Shown here: positions 1 to 15,876 of the stretch, one piece after another | Position numbering within the stretch: the first letter of the stretch is position 1 | How the letters are laid out: each line of letters begins with the position of its first letter | From: Chitinophagaceae bacterium | Lineage (GTDB): Bacteria; Bacteroidota; Bacteroidia; Chitinophagales; Chitinophagaceae | Length of the DNA: 64,000 bases | Assembly (NCBI GenBank): GCA_021151685.1 | Contig: JAGKWS010000004.1 | Location: forward strand, 15,800 to 79,799 | Direction of reading: 5' to 3' | Position numbers and translations under genes: made by a program | Notes under the pieces: generated by a model | Seen by the model: only the letters and a program-made list of their open reading frames with translations | Database searches by the model: none | Told to the model about the DNA's origin: nothing

Positions 1-3000
1 TAACGGCTACTTTATAGCTACCATCGCCACTTACAGGCAGGCTCCATGATGTGCCACCTGTAACCGGTAACAGATTTTTGTACCACTGGTAGGTTACATA
101 ATAGTTGCCGGTATACACTGCGTTAGTGCCGTTGTAAGCCACTACAGGGTTGGGCAGAGGTATGTCGGTAACGGCTACCGAGCTGGAAATAGGTGCGCAG
201 CTTGCCGGTACCGATACTACACAGTGGTAGGTGCCGGGGAGGGTAGCACTGTAAGTAGCACCTACTGCGCCCGGTACCGGAATGCCATTGCGGAACCACT
301 GATAACCCAATGCAGTACCGAGGTACGATACGTTTGTAGAGAGCAGGGAAGAACCACCCCAGCAGAAACGTGCAGGAGTGAGCGGTACTGCTGTAACGGT
401 AGAGATAACAGTTACTACGGTGTCGGCAGCGGTAATGCTGCTACAGCCCGTAGTTGCGTTGGTAACACGTACCCTGTAGCCGCCACTTGCGCTGGCAATG
501 TAGGTAGCATTGACGGCACCCGGTATTGCTACGCCACCTACATACCATTGGTACTGGAAGCCCGGTGCAGCATCGAGTGCCACAAAGCCACCAATGCAGA
601 AGATACGAGTGCCACCGGGTGTGATGGCTGCGCTGGGTACTGCATTAACCGTTACTGCCTGTGGAGTAGATGTAGCAGTGCAACCTGCACTGTTGGTTAC
701 CGTAACATAGTACCCTTCGGCCGTAGTAGCGGAGTACGATACTGATGTTGCACCGGCAATAGCACCTGTGCCATCGTACCATTGGTAGGTATAGCCTGCG
801 CCAGATGCGGCAGTGAGTGTAACACTACTGCCCGCACATATGGCCAATGGACCTGAAGCCGTAACCGTGTTGGATGGTATGGGGGTAGACGTTACTGCTA
901 CAGCGGCAGAAACTGCCCAGCAACCTGTGGCATTGGTTACGCGAACGGCATAACTACCTGTAGCAGTAGCATTGTAGGTGGCTGTATTGGCACCGGGTAT
1001 GGCTACACCACCAAGCTCCCACTGGTAGCTAAGACCAGTACCAGTATTGGCGTTTAGTACCACTGGTGTACCTGCACAGGTGCTGGTAGTGCCACCCGGT
1101 ACGGTAATAGTTGCAGTAGCTGGTGTTACGGCAACACTCATAGGTATGGAGGTAGATGAACAGCCAGATGCAATGCTAACCATTGCCGAGTAGCTGCCGG
1201 ATGCGGTAACTACCAACACGGGCGATGTGGCCCCTACAATAGGTGTGCCACCAGAGAACCACTGGTATGATACACTGGGTGAGGTGCTGACAGAAAGTGA
1301 TACAAAATCGCCGGGGCATATTACCGTATCGCCCAGTGGCGTGATAATAGCGGGTGGTGCGGCCGAGATAGTAACTACCGCTGTAGTGCTACAGCCAGTT
1401 GAGGTTTGTGTATATGTAATGGCCGATGTGCCCGAAGTAACACCTGTGTATGCACCAGTGCCGGCAACTATTGTAGCCACTGCGGTGTTGCCACTGGCCC
1501 ATGTGCCGGGCGTAGCGGCATTGGTAAGGGTGGCCGTAGAGCCGGGGCACAGTGTTGTAGGGCCGCCTATGGCCGGTGGCAATGCATTCACCGTCATGGT
1601 GCGTACACGCTCGCAACCGTTGGGTATGGTATAGGTGATATTGGCGGTGCCAGAGGCTACGCCATTTACGGTGCCGGTAGTGGCACCTACTGTAGCTATA
1701 GTGGTGTTGCCACTGGTCCATGTGCCGGTTGTAGGTGTGCTGCTGAGGGTAACACTGCTACCCAAACATACTGTAGAAGCACCGGTAAAAGTTGATGGGA
1801 GTGAGTTGACTGTAACGGTGCGTATAGTGCTACAGCCCGATACTGTGTAGGTAATGTTGGTAGTACCAGCAGTAACACCGGTAACAGTGCCTGTAACCAC
1901 ACCTGCAACAAATGGTGTGCTGCTGGACCATGTGCCACCAGTTGTAGTGCTGCTGAGTACTGTAGATGAACCCACACACACTGTTGCTGTGCCGGTAAGT
2001 GAGGCAGGCAGTGCATTTACAGTAACTACTACCGAGCGGGCACAACCATTGGTGCCTGTTGCGGTAATGGTGGCAGTGCCCAGGGCGTTGCCGCTTACCA
2101 CGCCTGTGGTAGCACCTACGCTGGCCACTGTAGTGTTGCTGCTGGTCCAGTTAAGTGGAGTTGTTGCACTGGTGAGTGTAGTGGTGCTACCCTGACATGC
2201 TATGAGGCTACCGTTAATGCTGGCTGGCAATGCCAAAACTGTTACTACCTGTGTGGTGATGCAGCCCGATGTGGGCAGTGTATAAGTAATGGTGGCTGTA
2301 CCGCCAAGTACATTTACACCGGTTACTACGCCCGATAAAATACCTACGGTTGCTACTGTAGTATTGCTGCTGGTCCATGTGCCGCCGGTGACAGGGGGGG
2401 TAAGAGTTGTTGTGCTGTTGGCGCATACCGATGCTGTGCCGGTTATAGCACCGGGTGTAGCGTCTACAGTGGCAATAGCTGTAACATTGCACCCAATGGC
2501 GGTGTAGGTAATAATAGTAGTACCTACGCCAGCACCTGTGAGTACGCCGGTACCGCTGATGGTAGCTACCCCTGAGGCGGAAGATACCCAAGTGCCACCG
2601 GCTGGGGTGCTGCCCAGTGCTGATGTGGCACCCACACATATATGCCTATCGCCAGTGATGGCAGATGGTGCAGGATTGACCGTAATGACAAAAGTACTGG
2701 TACACCCGGCTGGTGTAGTGTAGGTGAGTGTGGCTGTGCCTACCGACACACCGGTGACTACACCGGAAGTGAGCCCTACTGTGAACCGGGCAGTATTGCT
2801 ACTGGCCCATGTGCCACCCACTACTATGTTGCTCATGGTTACTGTACCGGTAGGGCAAACAACGCCACTGCCTGTAATATTTTCAACAGAATCTACCCTA
2901 ATGGTGCGGATAGTAGAGCAACCGGTGAATAGTTCATATTCTACAGTATCTACACCGGGGCCGGCAGATGAATATATGCCCGAAAACAAATCGACACTAC

Positions 3001-4171
3001 CTACGCCGGTATGATAGTTGAACCAAAAACCACCAATAAGAGGATTTACCAGTGCAGAGGCATCGCCGTTGCACAGCATTGTGTCGCCGGTAATGGGGGC
3101 AATAACGGTAGGATCTACTGTTACTATGGCCGATACGAGACAAGCCCCTGCTGCATAGCGAATGGTAACAGTGTCGGCGGATATGCCGGTTACAATACCG
3201 GTAGAGGAACCTACGGTAGCTGTAGTGGGGTCGAAACTGGTCCATGTGCCACCGGGTATAGGGTGCGATAATGTGATGTGTGAACCGATGCAGGTTTCGA
3301 GGCCACCAATAATATCGTCGCAAAGGAGACTGATGGAAAAATTGTCGAAATAACCATTCAGCGCATCTGGTGCAGCGGTAAGATAGGTAACGCTGTAGTT
3401 GCCATAAAAGCCGAAAGTGGTCATTACGGCACTGGTATATGTACCATCTGTACCGGTACCTACAGAGAATAATGTACCAGTGGTGGGGGAGGTAAAGCTG
3501 GTGAAACCATCATCGCGCACTTGTAGTTCCCAATCGTCTGTTGCGGGGTCGTAAATGACCTTTACACTGGCATAGTCTATAGAAGACATCATAAATGGGC
3601 CAGTTGCAACAATGGTGCTTAATGTGCCCAGAAGGCCGCCAGAATAATTGATAAGTGAAATACCATCGGGCGTAGTAGGGTCGAAAACTACTGCATAGCC
3701 CTTGCCGGCATTGCGTACGTCCGGATTGTCGGCAGCCAATACTACGGCAATGCCGTTGCGGCCATCAGAAAAGCCGGTAACGGGAATGCCTGTTTGCATA
3801 TTGAATGCCCACTGTACCCGCATAGTGTTGGCCGATAGAATAGGGTTGAACGGAGCGGCAACCGCAGACATAGGGGCCGTGGCGGCGGCATAGCCGTTGT
3901 TGGTAATACCCAGGGGTGATGTGGCTGCGGTGGTCCAAACCGAAAGTAAACCGGGTGTGAACACAATACTACCAGCAGAGCCACCAACCTGCAACCCTGC
4001 ATTGCTGCCGGGTGTGGCATCGGTATTGCCGTTGGCCAGGGCATAACCCACCGGGGGGAAGCTTGCCGGAGTGGTACTAAAATCGTCGGAATAAACTACC
4101 GTTTGGGCTTGGGAGTAGGTGAGCCCCAAAATGGCAGCAATAAGAAAATAATAACGTAACATTTTGTTCAT
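1..4171 (-). CDS. Large Ig-like repeat surface protein (probable T9SS cargo/adhesin), 3' end runs off the window
   Basis: Absent from the ORF track because it has no stop in the window. Hand translation of the minus strand is open in every segment read. In-frame ATGs at 4189/4183/4171/4162, signal peptide MNKMLRYYFLIAAILGLTYSQA, about nine ~73-aa repeats (C..G...GGTW.S.N..VATV..TG.VTGV..GTA.ITYT..GC) and four ~80-aa YQW-type repeats. Confidence 0.85.
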   Translation of the reverse strand, partial: MNKMLRYYFLIAAILGLTYSQAQTVVYSDDFSTTPASFPPVGYALANGNTDATPGSNAGLQVGGSAGSIVFTPGLLSVWTTAATSPLGITNNGYAAATAPMSAVAAPFNPILSANTMRVQWAFNMQTGIPVTGFSDGRNGIAVVLAADNPDVRNAGKGYAVVFDPTTPDGISLINYSGGLLGTLSTIVATGPFMMSSIDYASVKVIYDPATDDWELQVRDDGFTSFTSPTTGTLFSVGTGTDGTYTSAVMTTFGFYGNYSVTYLTAAPDALNGYFDNFSISLLCDDIIGGLETCIGSHITLSHPIPGGTWTSFDPTTATVGSSTGIVTGISADTVTIRYAAGACLVSAIVTVDPTVIAPITGDTMLCNGDASALVNPLIGGFWFNYHTGVGSVDLFSGIYSSAGPGVDTVEYELFTGCSTIRTIRVDSVENITGSGVVCPTGTVTMSNIVVGGTWASSNTARFTVGLTSGVVTGVSVGTATLTYTTPAGCTSTFVITVNPAPSAITGDRHICVGATSALGSTPAGGTWVSSASGVATISGTGVLTGAGVGTTIITYTAIGCNVTAIATVDATPGAITGTASVCANSTTTLTPPVTGGTWTSSNTTVATVGILSGVVTGVNVLGGTATITYTLPTSGCITTQVVTVLALPASINGSLIACQGSTTTLTSATTPLNWTSSNTTVASVGATTGVVSGNALGTATITATGTNGCARSVVVTVNALPASLTGTATVCVGSSTVLSSTTTGGTWSSSTPFVAGVVTGTVTGVTAGTTNITYTVSGCSTIRTVTVNSLPSTFTGASTVCLGSSVTLSSTPTTGTWTSGNTTIATVGATTGTVNGVASGTANITYTIPNGCERVRTMTVNALPPAIGGPTTLCPGSTATLTNAATPGTWASGNTAVATIVAGTGAYTGVTSGTSAITYTQTSTGCSTTAVVTISAAPPAIITPLGDTVICPGDFVSLSVSTSPSVSYQWFSGGTPIVGATSPVLVVTASGSYSAMVSIASGCSSTSIPMSVAVTPATATITVPGGTTSTCAGTPVVLNANTGTGLSYQWELGGVAIPGANTATYNATATGSYAVRVTNATGCWAVSAAVAVTSTPIPSNTVTASGPLAICAGSSVTLTAASGAGYTYQWYDGTGAIAGATSVSYSATTAEGYYVTVTNSAGCTATSTPQAVTVNAVPSAAITPGGTRIFCIGGFVALDAAPGFQYQWYVGGVAIPGAVNATYIASASGGYRVRVTNATTGCSSITAADTVVTVISTVTAVPLTPARFCWGGSSLLSTNVSYLGTALGYQWFRNGIPVPGAVGATYSATLPGTYHCVVSVPASCAPISSSVAVTDIPLPNPVVAYNGTNAVYTGNYYVTYQWYKNLLPVTGGTSWSLPVSGDGSYKVAV

Positions 4172-4530
4172 AACTGTACGCATTAGCATGAGTACAGCAA
4201 GGTACTAAGAATCTGTAGATTTACAAAAATGACAATATATTTTTTGTAATTGGTTGATATTCATTGTGCTATTGTTTAACTGTTAGTTTATTTTTTGCTT
4301 TGTATGTATATTGCTGGTTCCATAGGACGGCAGGTTTGCCACAAAGTGTATGATTGTTTTTTGCTGCAATGCTTTGGGGAGGGGGTAGATAGGGACTGGG
4401 GCAATAATTCCCTTTTTTATGGTAAAAGAATCTGTTTTGGGGAAAGGAAATAATTGTTGGTGCTTGGGTCACACCATTGTAATATGGAGGTATAGATTTT
4501 TGTTAACGGCGTGGCCAGTGACAAAGGGCT

Positions 4531-4538
4531 TACCTTTG
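4531..4538 (+). promoter_or_regulatory. Bacteroidota sigma-A -7 element (TACCTTTG) for the AraC gene
   Basis: Exact TAnnTTTG match inside the computed ORF, suggesting the true start lies downstream (ATG 4625). No clear -33 box. Confidence 0.45.
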
Positions 4539-4624
4539 CCCATGTGAAGGCTGTTACAGAAAAGATACGCAACAGGGCTGGGGTAGTAAACTTTCCGGGG
4601 GGCGATGCGCGGGTGGTGAACACT

Positions 4625-5401
4625 ATGGTGCTACCCGTAAATAACTTTGTGGTAGCAGAGCGCAGGGAGGTAATTTTGCAAGACAGTGAGCCATCGGACG
4701 AACAAGGTATGCTGCACTTGTACCCTATTGAAGATAACCGCTATTGTTTGGAACTACATTACCTGCAATATGCAGATGGCCCTGCCGATAATGATGTGGT
4801 GTATGTAATACGGTATCTGCCCACCTTTTTCCTTCAGTTTTCGGACAAAGATCTTGCTGCCAACCGGCCATTTCGTTTCGACCAGACTACCGAGCAACAG
4901 TTTACCGTTTGTAGCCGCTCGCGTAGCCTGCTGCAACAGTTGGATGGTGACAAAACAGGTACTGCCATTACCCGGTCGCTGGAGGCTACCGAGGTAGTGG
5001 TACATCTTTTGCGCAGGGCTTTGGAATGCATTACTGTGCCGTTTGCCGCCTGTCAGGTGCCTGCCTGCCGCTTTTTGGCGTTTGAGGGAGAGCGCGATAA
5101 GATAACGGCTGCCATGCGCATTATAGAGGCCAACATAGACCAGCCACAAACCATACGCGAGCTGTCGCGCAAGGTAGCGATGAACGAGTGCTACCTGAAA
5201 AAAGGATTCAAGGCCATAACCGGCAAAACCATACACGAATACCAGCAGTCTTTGCGAATAGCTCAGGCCCGCATACTGCTGCAAGAGCAGGGGCGCACCG
5301 TAACCGATGTGGCCAATACGCTGGGGTATAGCAGTATTTCGCATTTCAGTACGGCATTCAAGAAGGTGACCGGTATGAAGCCGTGCGAGTTGCTGGCGTA
5401 G
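4625..5401 (+). CDS. AraC-family transcriptional regulator
   Basis: C-terminal double HTH (TIRELSRKVAMNECYLKKGFKAITG...VTDVANTLGYSSISHFSTAFKK). Track starts at GTG 4511; ATG 4625 preferred because of the promoter motif. Confidence 0.9.
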   Translation: MVLPVNNFVVAERREVILQDSEPSDEQGMLHLYPIEDNRYCLELHYLQYADGPADNDVVYVIRYLPTFFLQFSDKDLAANRPFRFDQTTEQQFTVCSRSRSLLQQLDGDKTGTAITRSLEATEVVVHLLRRALECITVPFAACQVPACRFLAFEGERDKITAAMRIIEANIDQPQTIRELSRKVAMNECYLKKGFKAITGKTIHEYQQSLRIAQARILLQEQGRTVTDVANTLGYSSISHFSTAFKKVTGMKPCELLA

Positions 5402-5427
5402 TGGTGGACATAGGCTTTCTCCACGTA

Positions 5428-6159
5428 TCAGGAGGTGAAAGAGTGAAAGTGTGGCTTATGAGACTTGTCTGCGGAAAAAATAGATTTTACAAAGTTGATT
5501 TCTTTAACAAAGTAGTCTGCAGTAACCGGAGACTCTATGATGAAAGGGATATTGAGTGGAACTAATTTAGCTACCTTCCTGTAGGCTGTTATTGCTTCAG
5601 AGTTTATAGGGACGTGATTGCAGTCGGATGTAACATCGCTGATGTGAAACTGAATAAGTTTGTCTGCAAATAATCTCAGCATTCTTGCACACTCGGCCAT
5701 AGAAGAGTCAACTTGTTTTGCATGTGCAAAGTCTAAACAAAAGCGAGCATGGGGCAAATGTCCGAAAATCATTTGCAAATCATTTGATGTGCGACCGATT
5801 GCCTTTCGTTTGTCCATATTTTCTATACAAAGTATATCGCCCAATACTAACCATTTATCGAAATCTACAATTACATCGGGGTGTACTACAATTGGGTATT
5901 GATACTTTGCAAGTTCTCTAAGGTGTTCAATCAGATTGTTTTCAGAGAAATCGTTTAGTTTACTTGGTGCATGTATTGATATATGTTTGTACTTACGTAA
6001 GTCAAGGTTTGGAATTGCATCAATCAGAATTGGTAATTCACGTTCTCTGAGCGTAGAAAGTTCAATTGCATTGGCAGAATTGGGTGTGCCGGAAAGTATA
6101 TCCAGTGCTTTAACAAAATCGCCTTTTGCAAGGCTTCCGGTTGAGTATCCAATAAACAT
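5428..6159 (-). CDS. Xylose-isomerase/endonuclease IV-like TIM-barrel metallohydrolase, function unknown
   Basis: Ordered metal-ligand pattern IHAP, VHPD, IENMD, LDFAH, FHISD, NHVP, IIES. The ATG overlaps the upstream stop (TAATG). Confidence 0.7.
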   Translation of the reverse strand: MFIGYSTGSLAKGDFVKALDILSGTPNSANAIELSTLRERELPILIDAIPNLDLRKYKHISIHAPSKLNDFSENNLIEHLRELAKYQYPIVVHPDVIVDFDKWLVLGDILCIENMDKRKAIGRTSNDLQMIFGHLPHARFCLDFAHAKQVDSSMAECARMLRLFADKLIQFHISDVTSDCNHVPINSEAITAYRKVAKLVPLNIPFIIESPVTADYFVKEINFVKSIFSADKSHKPHFHSFTS

Positions 6160-7193
6160 TAAAAAATGCCGTATTTAAGTGTTAGTGTTTTCAGGCTCCC
6201 TTCATTTATCAGAAAAATATTGTCTAAGGCATTCTGCAATTCATCGGCTGTATTGCGCAGGTCTAAGAAGTAAGCATTGCCATATATGTCGTTCATGTTT
6301 ACTTTTAATAATGTTGTTCTGATTTCATCATTATCGATTTTTGACAAAAAGTTGCTATAGCAATTGATGATACGAACAATATTGTCTGTTGGTATAGAAA
6401 AGTGTTCCTGAAGCCCGATAATGAGTTCTAAAGGGACGATTTTAACCATGTCATTCAAGCTTTGTATTAATTCTGCTTTATCTTGATGTTGCCCGTAATG
6501 GCTAAAACACATCAATAAACCCTTTACGAAGAGCATTTTTCGGGAAATACGTAGTTTGATATTTCGCAAAGCCCATTTATCTCCTTCTTGTTCTCTTTGT
6601 TTGTATGCAAAATCTACACACATTGTGCGCCAGAATCTTACTATATCGTTTAGTAAATACCGGGGTATGGCTGGCCTGTCAGAATTAAGACCAGAATCAT
6701 GTTCAATATATTGAGACAATATTCCTTTTATAACGCTGTCATATGCGGTGCCATTTGTAGATGTGGTACTACCTAATAGGATATTGGTTGATTCGAGGAG
6801 CAGTAATATTCTTTTGGTCAGATTGTGATTGGTGTCCGATTGGCCTCCGATATTGTGCAGTAGCTCGTGGCTGAAAGATATATTTCCGAACATACCCGAA
6901 GTGCCAGGGTCTGTGTATCCTTTCGCTCTAAGTTTCTTTCTAATTTCATTTTCCATACTGGAATGACGAACATTCGCCTGTCCGTCAACCAGTAATGTCC
7001 AATCTATATCGCTGCCGCCAACACATTCTTTCCTGGCTATGGAACCAAATGCTATCAAATCTTCATCGGGCGAAAAAGGTGGAATTCCATATAGGGATTT
7101 TATTCCGCCTATTATTTCATCAGTTTTTCTGTAGCACCTTTCAAAATTGTCGATGTCAACTTTGTGGTGTTGTGCAAATTCTGGTAATGAAAT
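6159..7193 (-). CDS. Pol-beta-superfamily nucleotidyltransferase with helical C-terminal domain (DUF294/GlnD-like architecture)
   Basis: GSIARKECVGGSDIDW motif (GS-x10-DxD). Track start is TTG 7058, but the frame stays open upstream to an ATT at 7193. Confidence 0.75.
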   Translation of the reverse strand: MSLPEFAQHHKVDIDNFERCYRKTDEIIGGIKSLYGIPPFSPDEDLIAFGSIARKECVGGSDIDWTLLVDGQANVRHSSMENEIRKKLRAKGYTDPGTSGMFGNISFSHELLHNIGGQSDTNHNLTKRILLLLESTNILLGSTTSTNGTAYDSVIKGILSQYIEHDSGLNSDRPAIPRYLLNDIVRFWRTMCVDFAYKQREQEGDKWALRNIKLRISRKMLFVKGLLMCFSHYGQHQDKAELIQSLNDMVKIVPLELIIGLQEHFSIPTDNIVRIINCYSNFLSKIDNDEIRTTLLKVNMNDIYGNAYFLDLRNTADELQNALDNIFLINEGSLKTLTLKYGIF

Positions 7194-7213
7194 GTTTGAT
7201 TAAGTCACATTCT

Positions 7214-7245
7214 CAAAGTTACACGATTGAATTTGTACAGGCAAA
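7214..7245 (-). promoter_or_regulatory. Consensus Bacteroidota sigma-A promoter for the NTase operon
   Basis: Minus strand TTTG (7245-7242), 20-nt spacer, TAACTTTG (7221-7214). Confidence 0.75.
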
Positions 7246-7317
7246 TCTCAAGGGCGAAATATGACCATGGAAATATGGTGTACAGCTTGCAGAGAATGAA
7301 TCTGTAAGTAACCATAC

Positions 7318-7348
7318 AAATTGGGCACCCACATAAGGTGCCCAATTT
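7318..7348 (-). terminator. Hairpin terminator after pdxA
   Basis: aaattgggcacc-cacataa-ggtgcccaattt inverted repeat 29 nt past the pdxA stop. Confidence 0.6.
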
Positions 7349-15000: not shown

Positions 15001-15876
15001 GACTATGAAGTTGGTTTCCAGCAAAAACTTACCAAAAAATCGGCACTTACGCTTACTGCTTACTACAAAGAGCGTAAAGACATGGTGGGTACTGTACCAT
15101 ATGTATATGCATTCCCTTATCAGTATCAGACTTATGGTAACCGCGATTTCTCTTCTACAAAGGGTACAACATTGTTCTATGACATGCGTGCTACCAATCA
15201 CCTTCGTATGAGTGTATCTTATACCTTGCAGTTTGCCGAAGGTACTGGTGCCAGCTACAATAGTGGTCGTGGTTTGTTGAACACACTGATAAACGAGGGT
15301 ATTCCTAACCTGCGTTATGTAACATATCTTGATGTGGATTCAAGACACATTATATCTGCCAATGCCGATTACCGTTATTACGAAGGTGAAGGTCCAACGG
15401 TTGGTGGCAAGCGCATTTTGCAGAATGCTGGTGTGAACCTGATAATGCGTACAAGAAGTGGTGAACCTTATACACGCTACACCGATGCGATGGCACAAAC
15501 AGTGGTTGGTGGTGTGAATGGTGCCCGCCTGCCATGGCACTTTGGTATGGATCTTCGTATAGACAAAGACTTCGCGTTGAAGTTTGGACGTAAGTCTAAA
15601 GATGTTACAGAGGGTAAGAAGCCACGTCGTACCCAGTACATAAAAGGTATTGTGATGGTGAACAACTTGCTGAATACACGCGAAGTACTGGGTGTATATG
15701 GTTTCACAGGCCGTACGGATGATAATGGTTATATCACATCTTCTTTCGGTCAGCAATTTATACCACAGCAAATCAACCCACGTTCATATACCGATTTGTA
15801 CACAATATATATGAACAACCCTGGCTACCTGAACTATGCACGTACTATTAACCTTGCCGTTGAATTTAATTTCTAA
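12052..15876 (+). CDS. TonB-dependent receptor-like outer-membrane protein with N-terminal carboxypeptidase-regulatory-like domain
   Basis: Signal peptide, GEVTGTVLD...PIIGA N-domain, plug motifs LYVIDGVQV and IEQMEIITSGIPAKYGDVSGGVVSI, terminal Phe (VEFNF). Confidence 0.85.
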   Translation: MIRRLRFLLLFVLLGLSADVFAQTGEVTGTVLDDKKQPIIGAIITITQGGITKGGAATDMDGVYIIKPLDPGIYTLIAQYTGYPKYTVDRVQVTNGRVEQNFNMSSANELKEVKIIYEKPLVRKGGGSGQTLSSTDIKQLAVNQTGDIAGLTAGTYVAKRGEGLSIGGARKTGTLYVIDGVQVQNIGENANTGIDMSQNSIEQMEIITSGIPAKYGDVSGGVVSITSKGVARKTSGSLRVQQSIDGYNNRLINFTLAGPLYKKRVDSVTKKPVLGFALSGDWYDDRNRYPAYDRQWVVKEDKLKEMENTPLKVESDNTGNKIYNYASNYITFNDMERRKIVPRNRTQEARLNGKLDYQLNDNMRVIAGGMFNYVETDEYSRRASLMAPDATFTRKDLTGRGFIRFTQKFGKMNDTSARNNIISNAFYSVQADYQRTQTGREDPRFKKDLFKYAYVGKFDARERTNLYQFSGEDSLSGKKGVVLQGSAAGGYDFTRSELNPILANYTSQYYRELGGAAPATIQTIQANNAMANGDLPRYTYSVDGVGMFNSPGTLPNYYYNFTSDQYALDVNASFDLQTGKTKHAIEFGLYYQQRIIRSYAAYANFGPGAQSLWSQMRNLVSTVDNQNLRLDKENPMFRVNGQDYRYVSNGTVGSGYFLNSAGQVANVIPGPQDTIYYNLKNYGSSAFDKSLRKKLGVADNVNINVDALDPSVFSLDMFSADELLNISGNSFVDYYGYSYTGARQTGTVNFNDFWTQKDANGNFTRPMGAFSPTYIAGYLQDRFNYKDISFNIGVRVDRYSANTKVLRDPYSLYPVTTVGQVAGTTNFVNGGAHPSNIGSDYVVYVNDNQSTNPTIIGYRNGNTWYDPTGKQIEDPAALKAYSDGRDPQPFIQSQYKNIGMTDSNFNPNLSFTDYEPQVTVMPRIQFSFPISDVANFYAHYDIYAQRPYPSSIGYATAWDYYKLSASAPTGVLPNSNLRSTKTFDYEVGFQQKLTKKSALTLTAYYKERKDMVGTVPYVYAFPYQYQTYGNRDFSSTKGTTLFYDMRATNHLRMSVSYTLQFAEGTGASYNSGRGLLNTLINEGIPNLRYVTYLDVDSRHIISANADYRYYEGEGPTVGGKRILQNAGVNLIMRTRSGEPYTRYTDAMAQTVVGGVNGARLPWHFGMDLRIDKDFALKFGRKSKDVTEGKKPRRTQYIKGIVMVNNLLNTREVLGVYGFTGRTDDNGYITSSFGQQFIPQQINPRSYTDLYTIYMNNPGYLNYARTINLAVEFNF

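Follow-up and report, generated by a model that had tools for sequence, protein, structure and literature searches.

A copy of the candidate defence cassette PDC-M70, encoding a nucleotidyltransferase and a predicted endonuclease IV-like barrel, in a Chitinophagaceae genome

Clover (CloA and CloB) and Hailong (HalA and HalB) are two-gene defence systems, each of which includes a nucleotidyltransferase of the Pol-beta superfamily that is not a CD-NTase. In Clover, the dGTPase CloA is toxic alone and is suppressed by the nucleotidyltransferase CloB, which makes p3diT. The type VII toxin-antitoxin system MNT-HEPN (MntA-HepT) consists of a nucleotidyltransferase and a nucleic-acid-cleaving enzyme, and MNT antitoxins are reported to AMPylate HEPN toxins (PMC13000451). 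In DarTG, the gene for an upstream modifying enzyme overlaps that for a downstream hydrolase able to reverse the modification, and the system is mobile and occurs in defence contexts. In addition, 145 PDC systems, termed untested candidates, have been discovered through genes that lie within BREX, DISARM and type I restriction-modification (R-M) loci (Payne, Hughes, Fineran and Jackson, 2024; bioRxiv 10.1101/2024.01.29.577857). A 64,000-nucleotide stretch from a Chitinophagaceae bacterium (positions 15,800 to 79,799 of contig JAGKWS010000004.1, assembly GCA_021151685.1; hereafter the window) carries two overlapping genes, here called A and B, for a nucleotidyltransferase and a predicted TIM-barrel protein. 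The pair is one more copy of a cassette known to PADLOC as the phage-defence candidate PDC-M70.

Both profile hidden Markov models of PDC-M70 are matched nearly end to end. Protein A matches PDC-M70A (PDLC04778) with an E-value of 1.7e-105, residues 13-345 being aligned with positions 17-355 of the 355-position profile, and protein B matches PDC-M70B (PDLC04779) with an E-value of 5.6e-89 (residues 3-232 on positions 4-231 of 238). B directly follows A on one strand (A>>B), in agreement with the cassette order FAM_01459>>FAM_02243, which appears as CAS_00217, "assigned as candidate PDC-M70", in the supplement of the source paper (Payne et al., 2024). The two genes have the order, strand and overlap of the candidate and do not differ from it in architecture; a stop at codon 3 of A sets the window copy apart. 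An earlier note, made from the letters of the window alone, had proposed a candidate new defence or toxin-antitoxin system, a pairing not recognised from any named system, for which a PADLOC run was expected to return no hit if it was novel; since PADLOC names both proteins, the claim of novelty fails. What is left of that proposal is a self-contained, horizontally acquired accessory pair of a nucleotidyltransferase and an endonuclease IV (EndoIV)-like protein whose distribution and neighbours fit a role in defence or as a toxin-antitoxin system. A literature search returned no paper on PDC-M70 or on a defence pair made up of a nucleotidyltransferase and a xylose-isomerase-like protein.

Gene B occupies positions 5428 to 6159 of the minus strand (ATG at 6159-6157, TGA at 5430-5428), encodes 243 amino acids and is intact. 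Gene A occupies positions 6159 to 7208 of the same strand, from the GTG that corresponds to the start of its homologues (7208-7206) to a TAA at 6161-6159. The stop of A and the start of B overlap in a TAATG at 6157 to 6161, minus strand, which is read directly from the sequence and corresponds to the translational coupling described in the earlier note.

Clover and Hailong have in common with this locus the two-gene layout and the kind of nucleotidyltransferase, but B is not an HD dNTPase and not a channel. MntA and PDC-S09 give weak matches to the core motif of A, whereas B is not a HEPN protein and an MNT protein has a third of the size of A; NCBIfam has no family for A, its MntA model reaching 12.4 bits against a cut-off of 60. 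With regard to CBASS, A has no CD-NTase (SMODS) match in Pfam and no match to a CBASS cyclase model in PADLOC, and B is without a signal-sensing domain. The likeness to DarTG is a functional analogy only, because ADP-ribosylation and a macrodomain in that system stand against the proposed transfer of a nucleoside monophosphate (NMP) and an EndoIV-like barrel here, with unrelated folds and chemistry.

The two predicted enzymes

To judge from its core motif and model, protein A is a nucleotidyltransferase of the Pol-beta superfamily whose predicted fold is nearest to those of the protein AMPylases DrrA and GlnE. The GS-x10-DxD motif that had been noticed in the first gene is present as G51-S52-x10-D63-x-D65; among 106 homologues, G51, S52 and D65 are invariant and D63 is kept in at least 90%. 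In a metagenome protein collection, 2543 homologues were found, with a typical length of 349 amino acids. Pfam places A only below threshold, in NTP_transf_2 (17.6 bits for the window protein versus a cut-off of 21), Polbeta and DUF294; among the 106 relatives, NTP_transf_2 is detected at an E-value of 0.1 or less in 105 (best 1.6e-7), DUF294 in 95 and SidM_N in four. Sequence searches of the PDB with A gave only weak matches to the core motif of MNT, Cid1 and HalB. The AlphaFold2 model, based on a deep alignment, has a predicted local distance difference test score (pLDDT) of 94.4. Its top Foldseek matches in the PDB are protein AMPylases, namely DrrA/SidM of Legionella (6yx5_B, E-value 6.5e-4, template modelling (TM) score 0.48) and both halves of E. 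coli GlnE (1v4a, 2e-3; 3k7d, 2.1e-3), followed by the weaker matches of aminoglycoside nucleotidyltransferases, Cid1 and HalB. GlnE and DrrA/SidM, as well as GlnD and DUF294, have in common with A the Pol-beta core with GS-x10-DxD and a helical domain behind it, whereas identity of A to GlnE and DrrA/SidM is only 10-14% and A is a single 349-residue domain set without regulatory or guanine nucleotide exchange factor domains.

Protein B is predicted to be a minimal EndoIV-like TIM barrel with a multi-metal phosphodiesterase site. It matches Pfam PF01261 (xylose-isomerase-like TIM barrel) with 33.9 bits against a cut-off of 31.1, and its AlphaFold2 model (pLDDT 94.1) is an eight-strand barrel in a single minimal domain with no extra ligand-sensing domain. 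Foldseek matches with E-values of about 1e-8 to 1e-5 comprise UlaE, endonuclease IV, ketose 3-epimerases, UVDE and MbnB, the EndoIV structures 2nq9_A and 1qum_A being matched at about 1e-7. On the model, the fold alone decides nothing between an epimerase and a phosphodiesterase, and the pattern of ligands helps. Putative metal ligands in the EndoIV order (H, H, E, D-x2-H, H, H, E), as read earlier in gene 2, are indeed there: across 119 homologues H63, H93, E113, H146, H172, H182 and E209 are invariant and D143 is kept in at least 90%. A profile alignment places E113, D143, H146, H172, H182 and E209 on E145, D179, H182, H216, H231 and E261 of Nfo, the endonuclease IV of E. coli, and B appears to keep eight of the nine EndoIV metal ligands, two of these placed by strand order. 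The metal site of sugar epimerases consists of Glu-Asp-His-Glu. B matches no NCBIfam family at an E-value of 1 or less and no PDB sequence in a profile search, and hhalign against E. coli Nfo gives a probability of 45%. By its sequence, B is a distinct family with a putative EndoIV-type multi-metal site and not an orthologue of Nfo. Nfo and UVDE have the TIM barrel in common with B; at 285 amino acids Nfo is longer than B with its 243, the loops of which are shorter. CbiR, a cobamide phosphodiesterase of the AP_endonuc_2 superfamily, may be comparable to B as well.

Linkage of the pair and loss of A

A pattern scan that took a single genome for each species found B in 561 of 185,579 species genomes (0.3%), its carriers being spread over at least eight phyla and belonging to Bacteroidota, Planctomycetota, Acidobacteriota, Myxococcota, Gemmatimonadota, Elusimicrobiota, Ignavibacteria and Alphaproteobacteria. 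The metagenome protein collection holds more than 2,500 relatives of A and more than 700 of B. Only one other genome among 400 sampled from the phylum of the window has A, and no homologue of A or B was found in phage genomes. Conservation of the pair, a check suggested in the earlier note, was borne out: in each of the seven places found with A as the seed, B comes next after A, with an overlap or almost without a gap. The same arrangement was seen on two conjugative megaplasmids of rhizobia and in all 22 A-seeded loci of the taxonomic order to which genome G429 belongs. At the junctions of 52 intact pairs, the genes overlap by 1 nt in 26 and by 4 nt in seven, and a gap of 0-2 nt separates them in 15. 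Two acidobacterial loci have a fragment of B (profile positions 2-65) upstream of A (L072:4465-4816 and L110:1011-1362), apparently left over from a cassette that was in tandem or has been replaced.

The check for a defence context was answered in part, since defence genes lie near some copies, while the window and several others are set among housekeeping genes. The neighbours of defence type include a methyltransferase with a UvrD/PD-(D/E)XK protein, an MNT/HEPN-like pair, AAA_21 with RloB, a KAP NTPase, an Eco57I-type methylase, SIR2 with an ATPase, and AbiEii. Among 130 flanking open reading frames (ORFs) at 48 loci are those for PglZ, SduA, DruM, GajB, AriA, AbiLi, DRT reverse transcriptases and HNH or restriction endonucleases.

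The two genes are lost unequally. B-seeded loci were taken from species genomes with enough upstream DNA, B being intact in all of them by selection; in the 72 evaluable ones, A is present in one ORF in 52, split in nine, partial in four and absent in seven, which leaves 20 loci (28%), the window and G003 among them, without an intact A. Among 22 strong A-seeded matches from 401 genomes of the order of G429, B is intact in all 22 and A is damaged in four. The partner is intact in 18 of 18 loci when A is the intact gene, versus 52 of 72 when B is (Fisher p ~0.01). In a deltaproteobacterial metagenome-assembled genome (MAG; L040:4257-5519), A is split by a gene for a 420-residue transposase with B intact just downstream, and hence not all disruptions of A are sequencing errors. 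In G003, the only other carrier found in the genus of the window, a TGA stands for the conserved Gly101 codon of A (L020:88-90; GST*MFGH versus GSTGMFGH), the contig ending 90 nt upstream, and B is intact. B is also found alone or behind other toxin-antitoxin genes. This unequal loss favours the reading of A as a harmful writer and of B as its eraser, and weighs against the converse arrangement, a toxic B held back by A, for which Clover and MntA-HepT are the models.

Two further forms were set aside. An apparent second internal stop in A (P0016, a 244-residue form) is the end of a contig, and a single ORF of 672 codons joining A and B (L084:4699-6714), in which the last ~13 residues of A are replaced out of register, probably reflects a frameshift or an assembly error and was not used. 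In a Pirellula MAG (L066:3731-5293), B without A immediately follows a VapB/VapC-like (PIN) pair of the same orientation.

In the window, codon 3 of A is an in-frame TAA (7200 to 7202, minus strand). The closest homologue (L011, 72% identity) reads GTG ATT TTA TCA GCT ATT TCA (M-I-L-S-A-I-S) behind the same promoter boxes, and the DNA alignment puts GTG ACT TAA TCA AAC ATT TCA of the window at the same place, so that a one-base change has turned the Leu codon TTA into a stop. Identical sequence, TAA included, extends over 2,151 and 2,022 nt in two further assemblies from Logan (L136 and L137; runs SRR13740820 and SRR13740840, which may share a source), and the TAA is accordingly not an error of one assembly. 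The frame is open again from 7199, with 345 uninterrupted codons at 7196-6162. The next canonical start downstream, TTG at 7058, would remove 46 residues ahead of the GS motif; a canonical start is present in 52 of 52 intact homologues of A. By its sequence, A is probably silenced in this genome, or at best weakly expressed from a near-cognate ATT, and B is intact; this state corresponds to the family-wide pattern of loss of A and retention of B. Against the nearest relative, A has a ratio of nonsynonymous to synonymous substitution rates (dN/dS) of 0.049 and B one of 0.043, and lineage-specific changes number 15 versus 9; dS is saturated and there is no significant excess of changes in A in the window lineage, so that the comparison is uninformative as to relaxed selection. 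Since A has no sign of relaxed constraint and retains 345 intact codons, the stop at codon 3 is either recent or leaky.

That A is alive in this genome and translated from the ATT at 7193-7191, which would make the cassette fully functional here, is a serious possibility, if somewhat on the improbable side. This codon (7191 to 7193, minus strand) is the only candidate near-cognate start for full-length A; its use is hypothetical and would perhaps come about by re-initiation after GTG-ACT-TAA or after an ATG-TGA mini-ORF at the start of the transcript. The protein would then begin where the shortest homologues begin (MSIKEF, MTVSEF), all family-invariant residues of A lie intact in the 345 downstream codons, and A has accumulated no excess of lineage-specific amino-acid changes at the low dN/dS just given. 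Initiation at ATT is rare, however, and none of the 52 intact homologues has a non-canonical start. The TAA, moreover, is one base away from a Leu codon of a conserved N-terminus that starts with GTG in L011, and the family has further cases of an A with an early or internal stop.

Relatives of A occur with other partners. Another 19 genomes from the order of G429 carry a second-tier relative of A (~95 bits), ahead of which lies an overlapping gene for a DEDDh 3'-5' exonuclease; the exonuclease matches Pfam RNase_T and the PADLOC model PDLC00753 "Effector/Exonuclease" (E-value 2.3e-37). A distant relative on a Mycobacterium plasmid is coupled with a HIT-domain hydrolase beside HsdR and an AAA ATPase (L132, 3863-5352), and another on a Rhizobium plasmid with a histidine phosphatase inside a glycosyltransferase/major facilitator superfamily (MFS) cluster (L133, 3905-5600). 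All these partners hydrolyse nucleotide-phosphate bonds. The association of relatives of A with other nucleotide phosphoesterases corresponds to an eraser logic and indirectly favours the writer/eraser idea. On the E. coli plasmid NZ_CP092257.1 (L131, 711-1706; 4.5 kb, ColE1-type), an A-like nucleotidyltransferase of 331 amino acids and 32% identity is encoded without a hydrolase partner, an unannotated ORF of 157 amino acids lying just upstream. In the loci with the DEDDh exonuclease (L123-L130, e.g. L125:834-2475; ~19 of 401 genomes), a 221-residue exonuclease always lies ahead of a transferase of ~330 residues, and this combination may be a separate, uncatalogued two-gene candidate.

Proposed reversible nucleotidylation and its alternatives

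The best joint explanation, held at about an even chance, is that the locus is a PDC-M70 cassette acting as a writer/eraser module in the manner of DarTG, in which A is probably silenced in this genome. In such a module, A would transfer an NMP to a target of the cell or of a phage, which might be the side chain of a protein or the end of a nucleic acid, and this transfer would be harmful or growth-arresting. B, translationally coupled just downstream, would hydrolyse the resulting phosphodiester and thereby restrain A, and infection would tip the balance between the two. A would be the harmful half and hence the half that mutates away. By analogy, the fold of A hints at a protein target, whereas the chemistry of EndoIV and of the DEDDh exonuclease hints at a nucleic-acid 3' end. 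A more detailed proposal, in which PDC-M70 is an immune or toxin-antitoxin module, is tentative and somewhat doubtful: a GlnE/DrrA-like A would NMPylate a protein or nucleic-acid end and arrest the infected cell, an enzyme of the EndoIV fold would be the dedicated de-NMPylase, and different erasers (DEDDh exonuclease, HIT hydrolase, histidine phosphatase) would have been swapped around the same writer. We know of no de-NMPylase activity for the EndoIV fold.

Several points weigh against the writer/eraser explanation or against parts of it. PDC-M70 is an untested candidate in its source paper, and its name accordingly implies no mechanism. The likeness of A to DrrA and GlnE (TM 0.41-0.48, E-values of 6.5e-4 to 2e-3) is at the level of the fold and does not fix the substrate. 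The top Foldseek match of B is the sugar-phosphate epimerase UlaE, so that the fold is of an epimerase type as well. H63 and H93 of B are paired with H69 and H109 of Nfo by the order of strands 3 and 4 only, the profile alignment being mis-registered there, and D229 of Nfo has no conserved equivalent among the 119 homologues of B. As the lone A-like gene on the E. coli plasmid shows, a transferase of this fold can lack a partner and yet not be lethal. A in the window has no sign of relaxed constraint and may still be expressed, and the window copy and several other loci lie among housekeeping genes. The loss counts, finally, come from MAGs, some of them nanopore-derived, and from mutually related genomes, the B-seeded loci were picked and ranked by the quality of the B match, and A is 1.4 times longer than B.

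An unlikely, though not negligible, alternative is a signal synthase with its effector, similar to CBASS or Hailong, in which A would make a linear or cyclic nucleotide upon infection that switches on B as a nuclease or phosphodiesterase. Pol-beta enzymes other than CD-NTases do make defence signals, p3diT by CloB being an example, HalB is among the weak PDB matches of A, and the DEDDh partner of the second-tier relatives matches a model named "Effector/Exonuclease" (E-value 2.3e-37). Enzymes of the EndoIV fold cut DNA, as would suit an effector. A itself, however, has no CD-NTase/SMODS match in Pfam or PADLOC, and B, with 243 residues, consists of one minimal barrel and has no further domain for sensing a ligand. 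Loss of the synthase should also free B to decay, yet B is kept, which argues weakly against this scheme.

It is improbable that the pair has no defence role and instead has an accessory function in metabolism, repair or resistance, for instance by nucleotidylation of a small molecule as in aminoglycoside nucleotidyltransferases, combined with a barrel acting on a sugar or a phosphodiester. UlaE as the best structural match of B, aminoglycoside nucleotidyltransferases among the weaker fold matches of A, the distant relative of A with a histidine phosphatase within a glycosyltransferase/MFS cluster, and the housekeeping surroundings of the window copy and several others are all in line with such a role. 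On the other hand, B has the His-His-Glu-Asp-His-His-His-Glu pattern of EndoIV and not the site of the epimerases. The pair is patchy, occurring in 0.3% of species across at least eight phyla, its defence neighbours recur, and the cassette came to light inside BREX, DISARM or type I R-M loci.

Restraint of a toxic B by A, through an inhibitory signal as in Clover and Hailong or through nucleotidylation of B as in MntA-HepT, has precedents in the suppression of toxic CloA by CloB and in the AMPylation of HEPN toxins by MNT antitoxins, but it is very improbable, since an intact B with a broken or absent A should then be rare and is seen in 20 of 72 loci, the window and G003 among them, B occurs alone or behind other toxin-antitoxin genes, and persistence of B without A in 28% of loci is the opposite of the asymmetry in Clover and Hailong, in which the product of the nucleotidyltransferase restrains a toxic effector.

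Setting of the cassette and wider meaning

The cassette is a solitary islet of ~1.9 kb, horizontally acquired, between an AraC gene and pdxA. In two genomes of the same genus, G017 and G012, the homologues of AraC and pdxA are adjacent and free of the cassette, the spacer between them measuring 230 bp and ~37 bp, respectively, versus ~1.98 kb in the window, and homology ends at the AraC stop codon. Horizontal acquisition follows from these empty sites, from the low guanine-cytosine (GC) content and from the rarity of the cassette in the phylum (1 of 400) and among species (561 of 185,579). No terminal or flanking repeats, target duplication, insertion sequence or integrase was found around the cassette. 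In a relative with 82% protein identity in B, the cassette also adjoins an AraC gene; in G003 (L020), a member of the same genus, the pair is on a different contig from pdxA.

The earlier note had described the pair as AT-richer than its neighbours and wedged between AraC and the terminator of pdxA, and both descriptions agree with the present data. GC content is 0.35-0.40 over 5500-7250 versus 0.50-0.55 on both flanks, and the low-GC segment extends approximately from 5402 to 7300 (no strand assigned), between the AraC stop (5401) and the terminator. The AraC gene (4511-5401, plus strand) ends 26 nt from the stop of B; pdxA (8447-7377, minus strand) lies upstream of A, with its terminator hairpin at 7318-7348. 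A perfect sigma-A promoter of the pair's own had also been claimed. At 7214 to 7245 on the minus strand there is a promoter-like motif of the Bacteroidota type, TTTG-N20-TAACTTTG, which ends 5 nt ahead of the homologous GTG and both boxes of which are kept in the closest homologous locus, L011; as a bare pattern it has two matches in the window versus 1.4 expected, not above chance, and no sigma-70 promoter of the E. coli type is present on the gene strand. Elsewhere in the window, at 2700-4100, long ORFs overlap on both strands with strong GC and AT skew. L136 annotates there a gene for a Big_2/Por_Secre_tail protein of more than 1,400 amino acids, secreted by the type IX secretion system (T9SS), and the additional ORFs are accordingly shadows.

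For this genome, the analysis means that the pair is already named and that its first gene is probably off. For the family, two comparative predictions are offered, namely that A is lost while B is kept, and that different hydrolases partner the same transferase family. If the writer/eraser explanation is true, the known chemistries of bacterial immunity would be extended by the attachment of nucleotides through a GlnE-like enzyme and their removal through a hydrolase of the EndoIV fold, and the EndoIV fold would gain a new activity.

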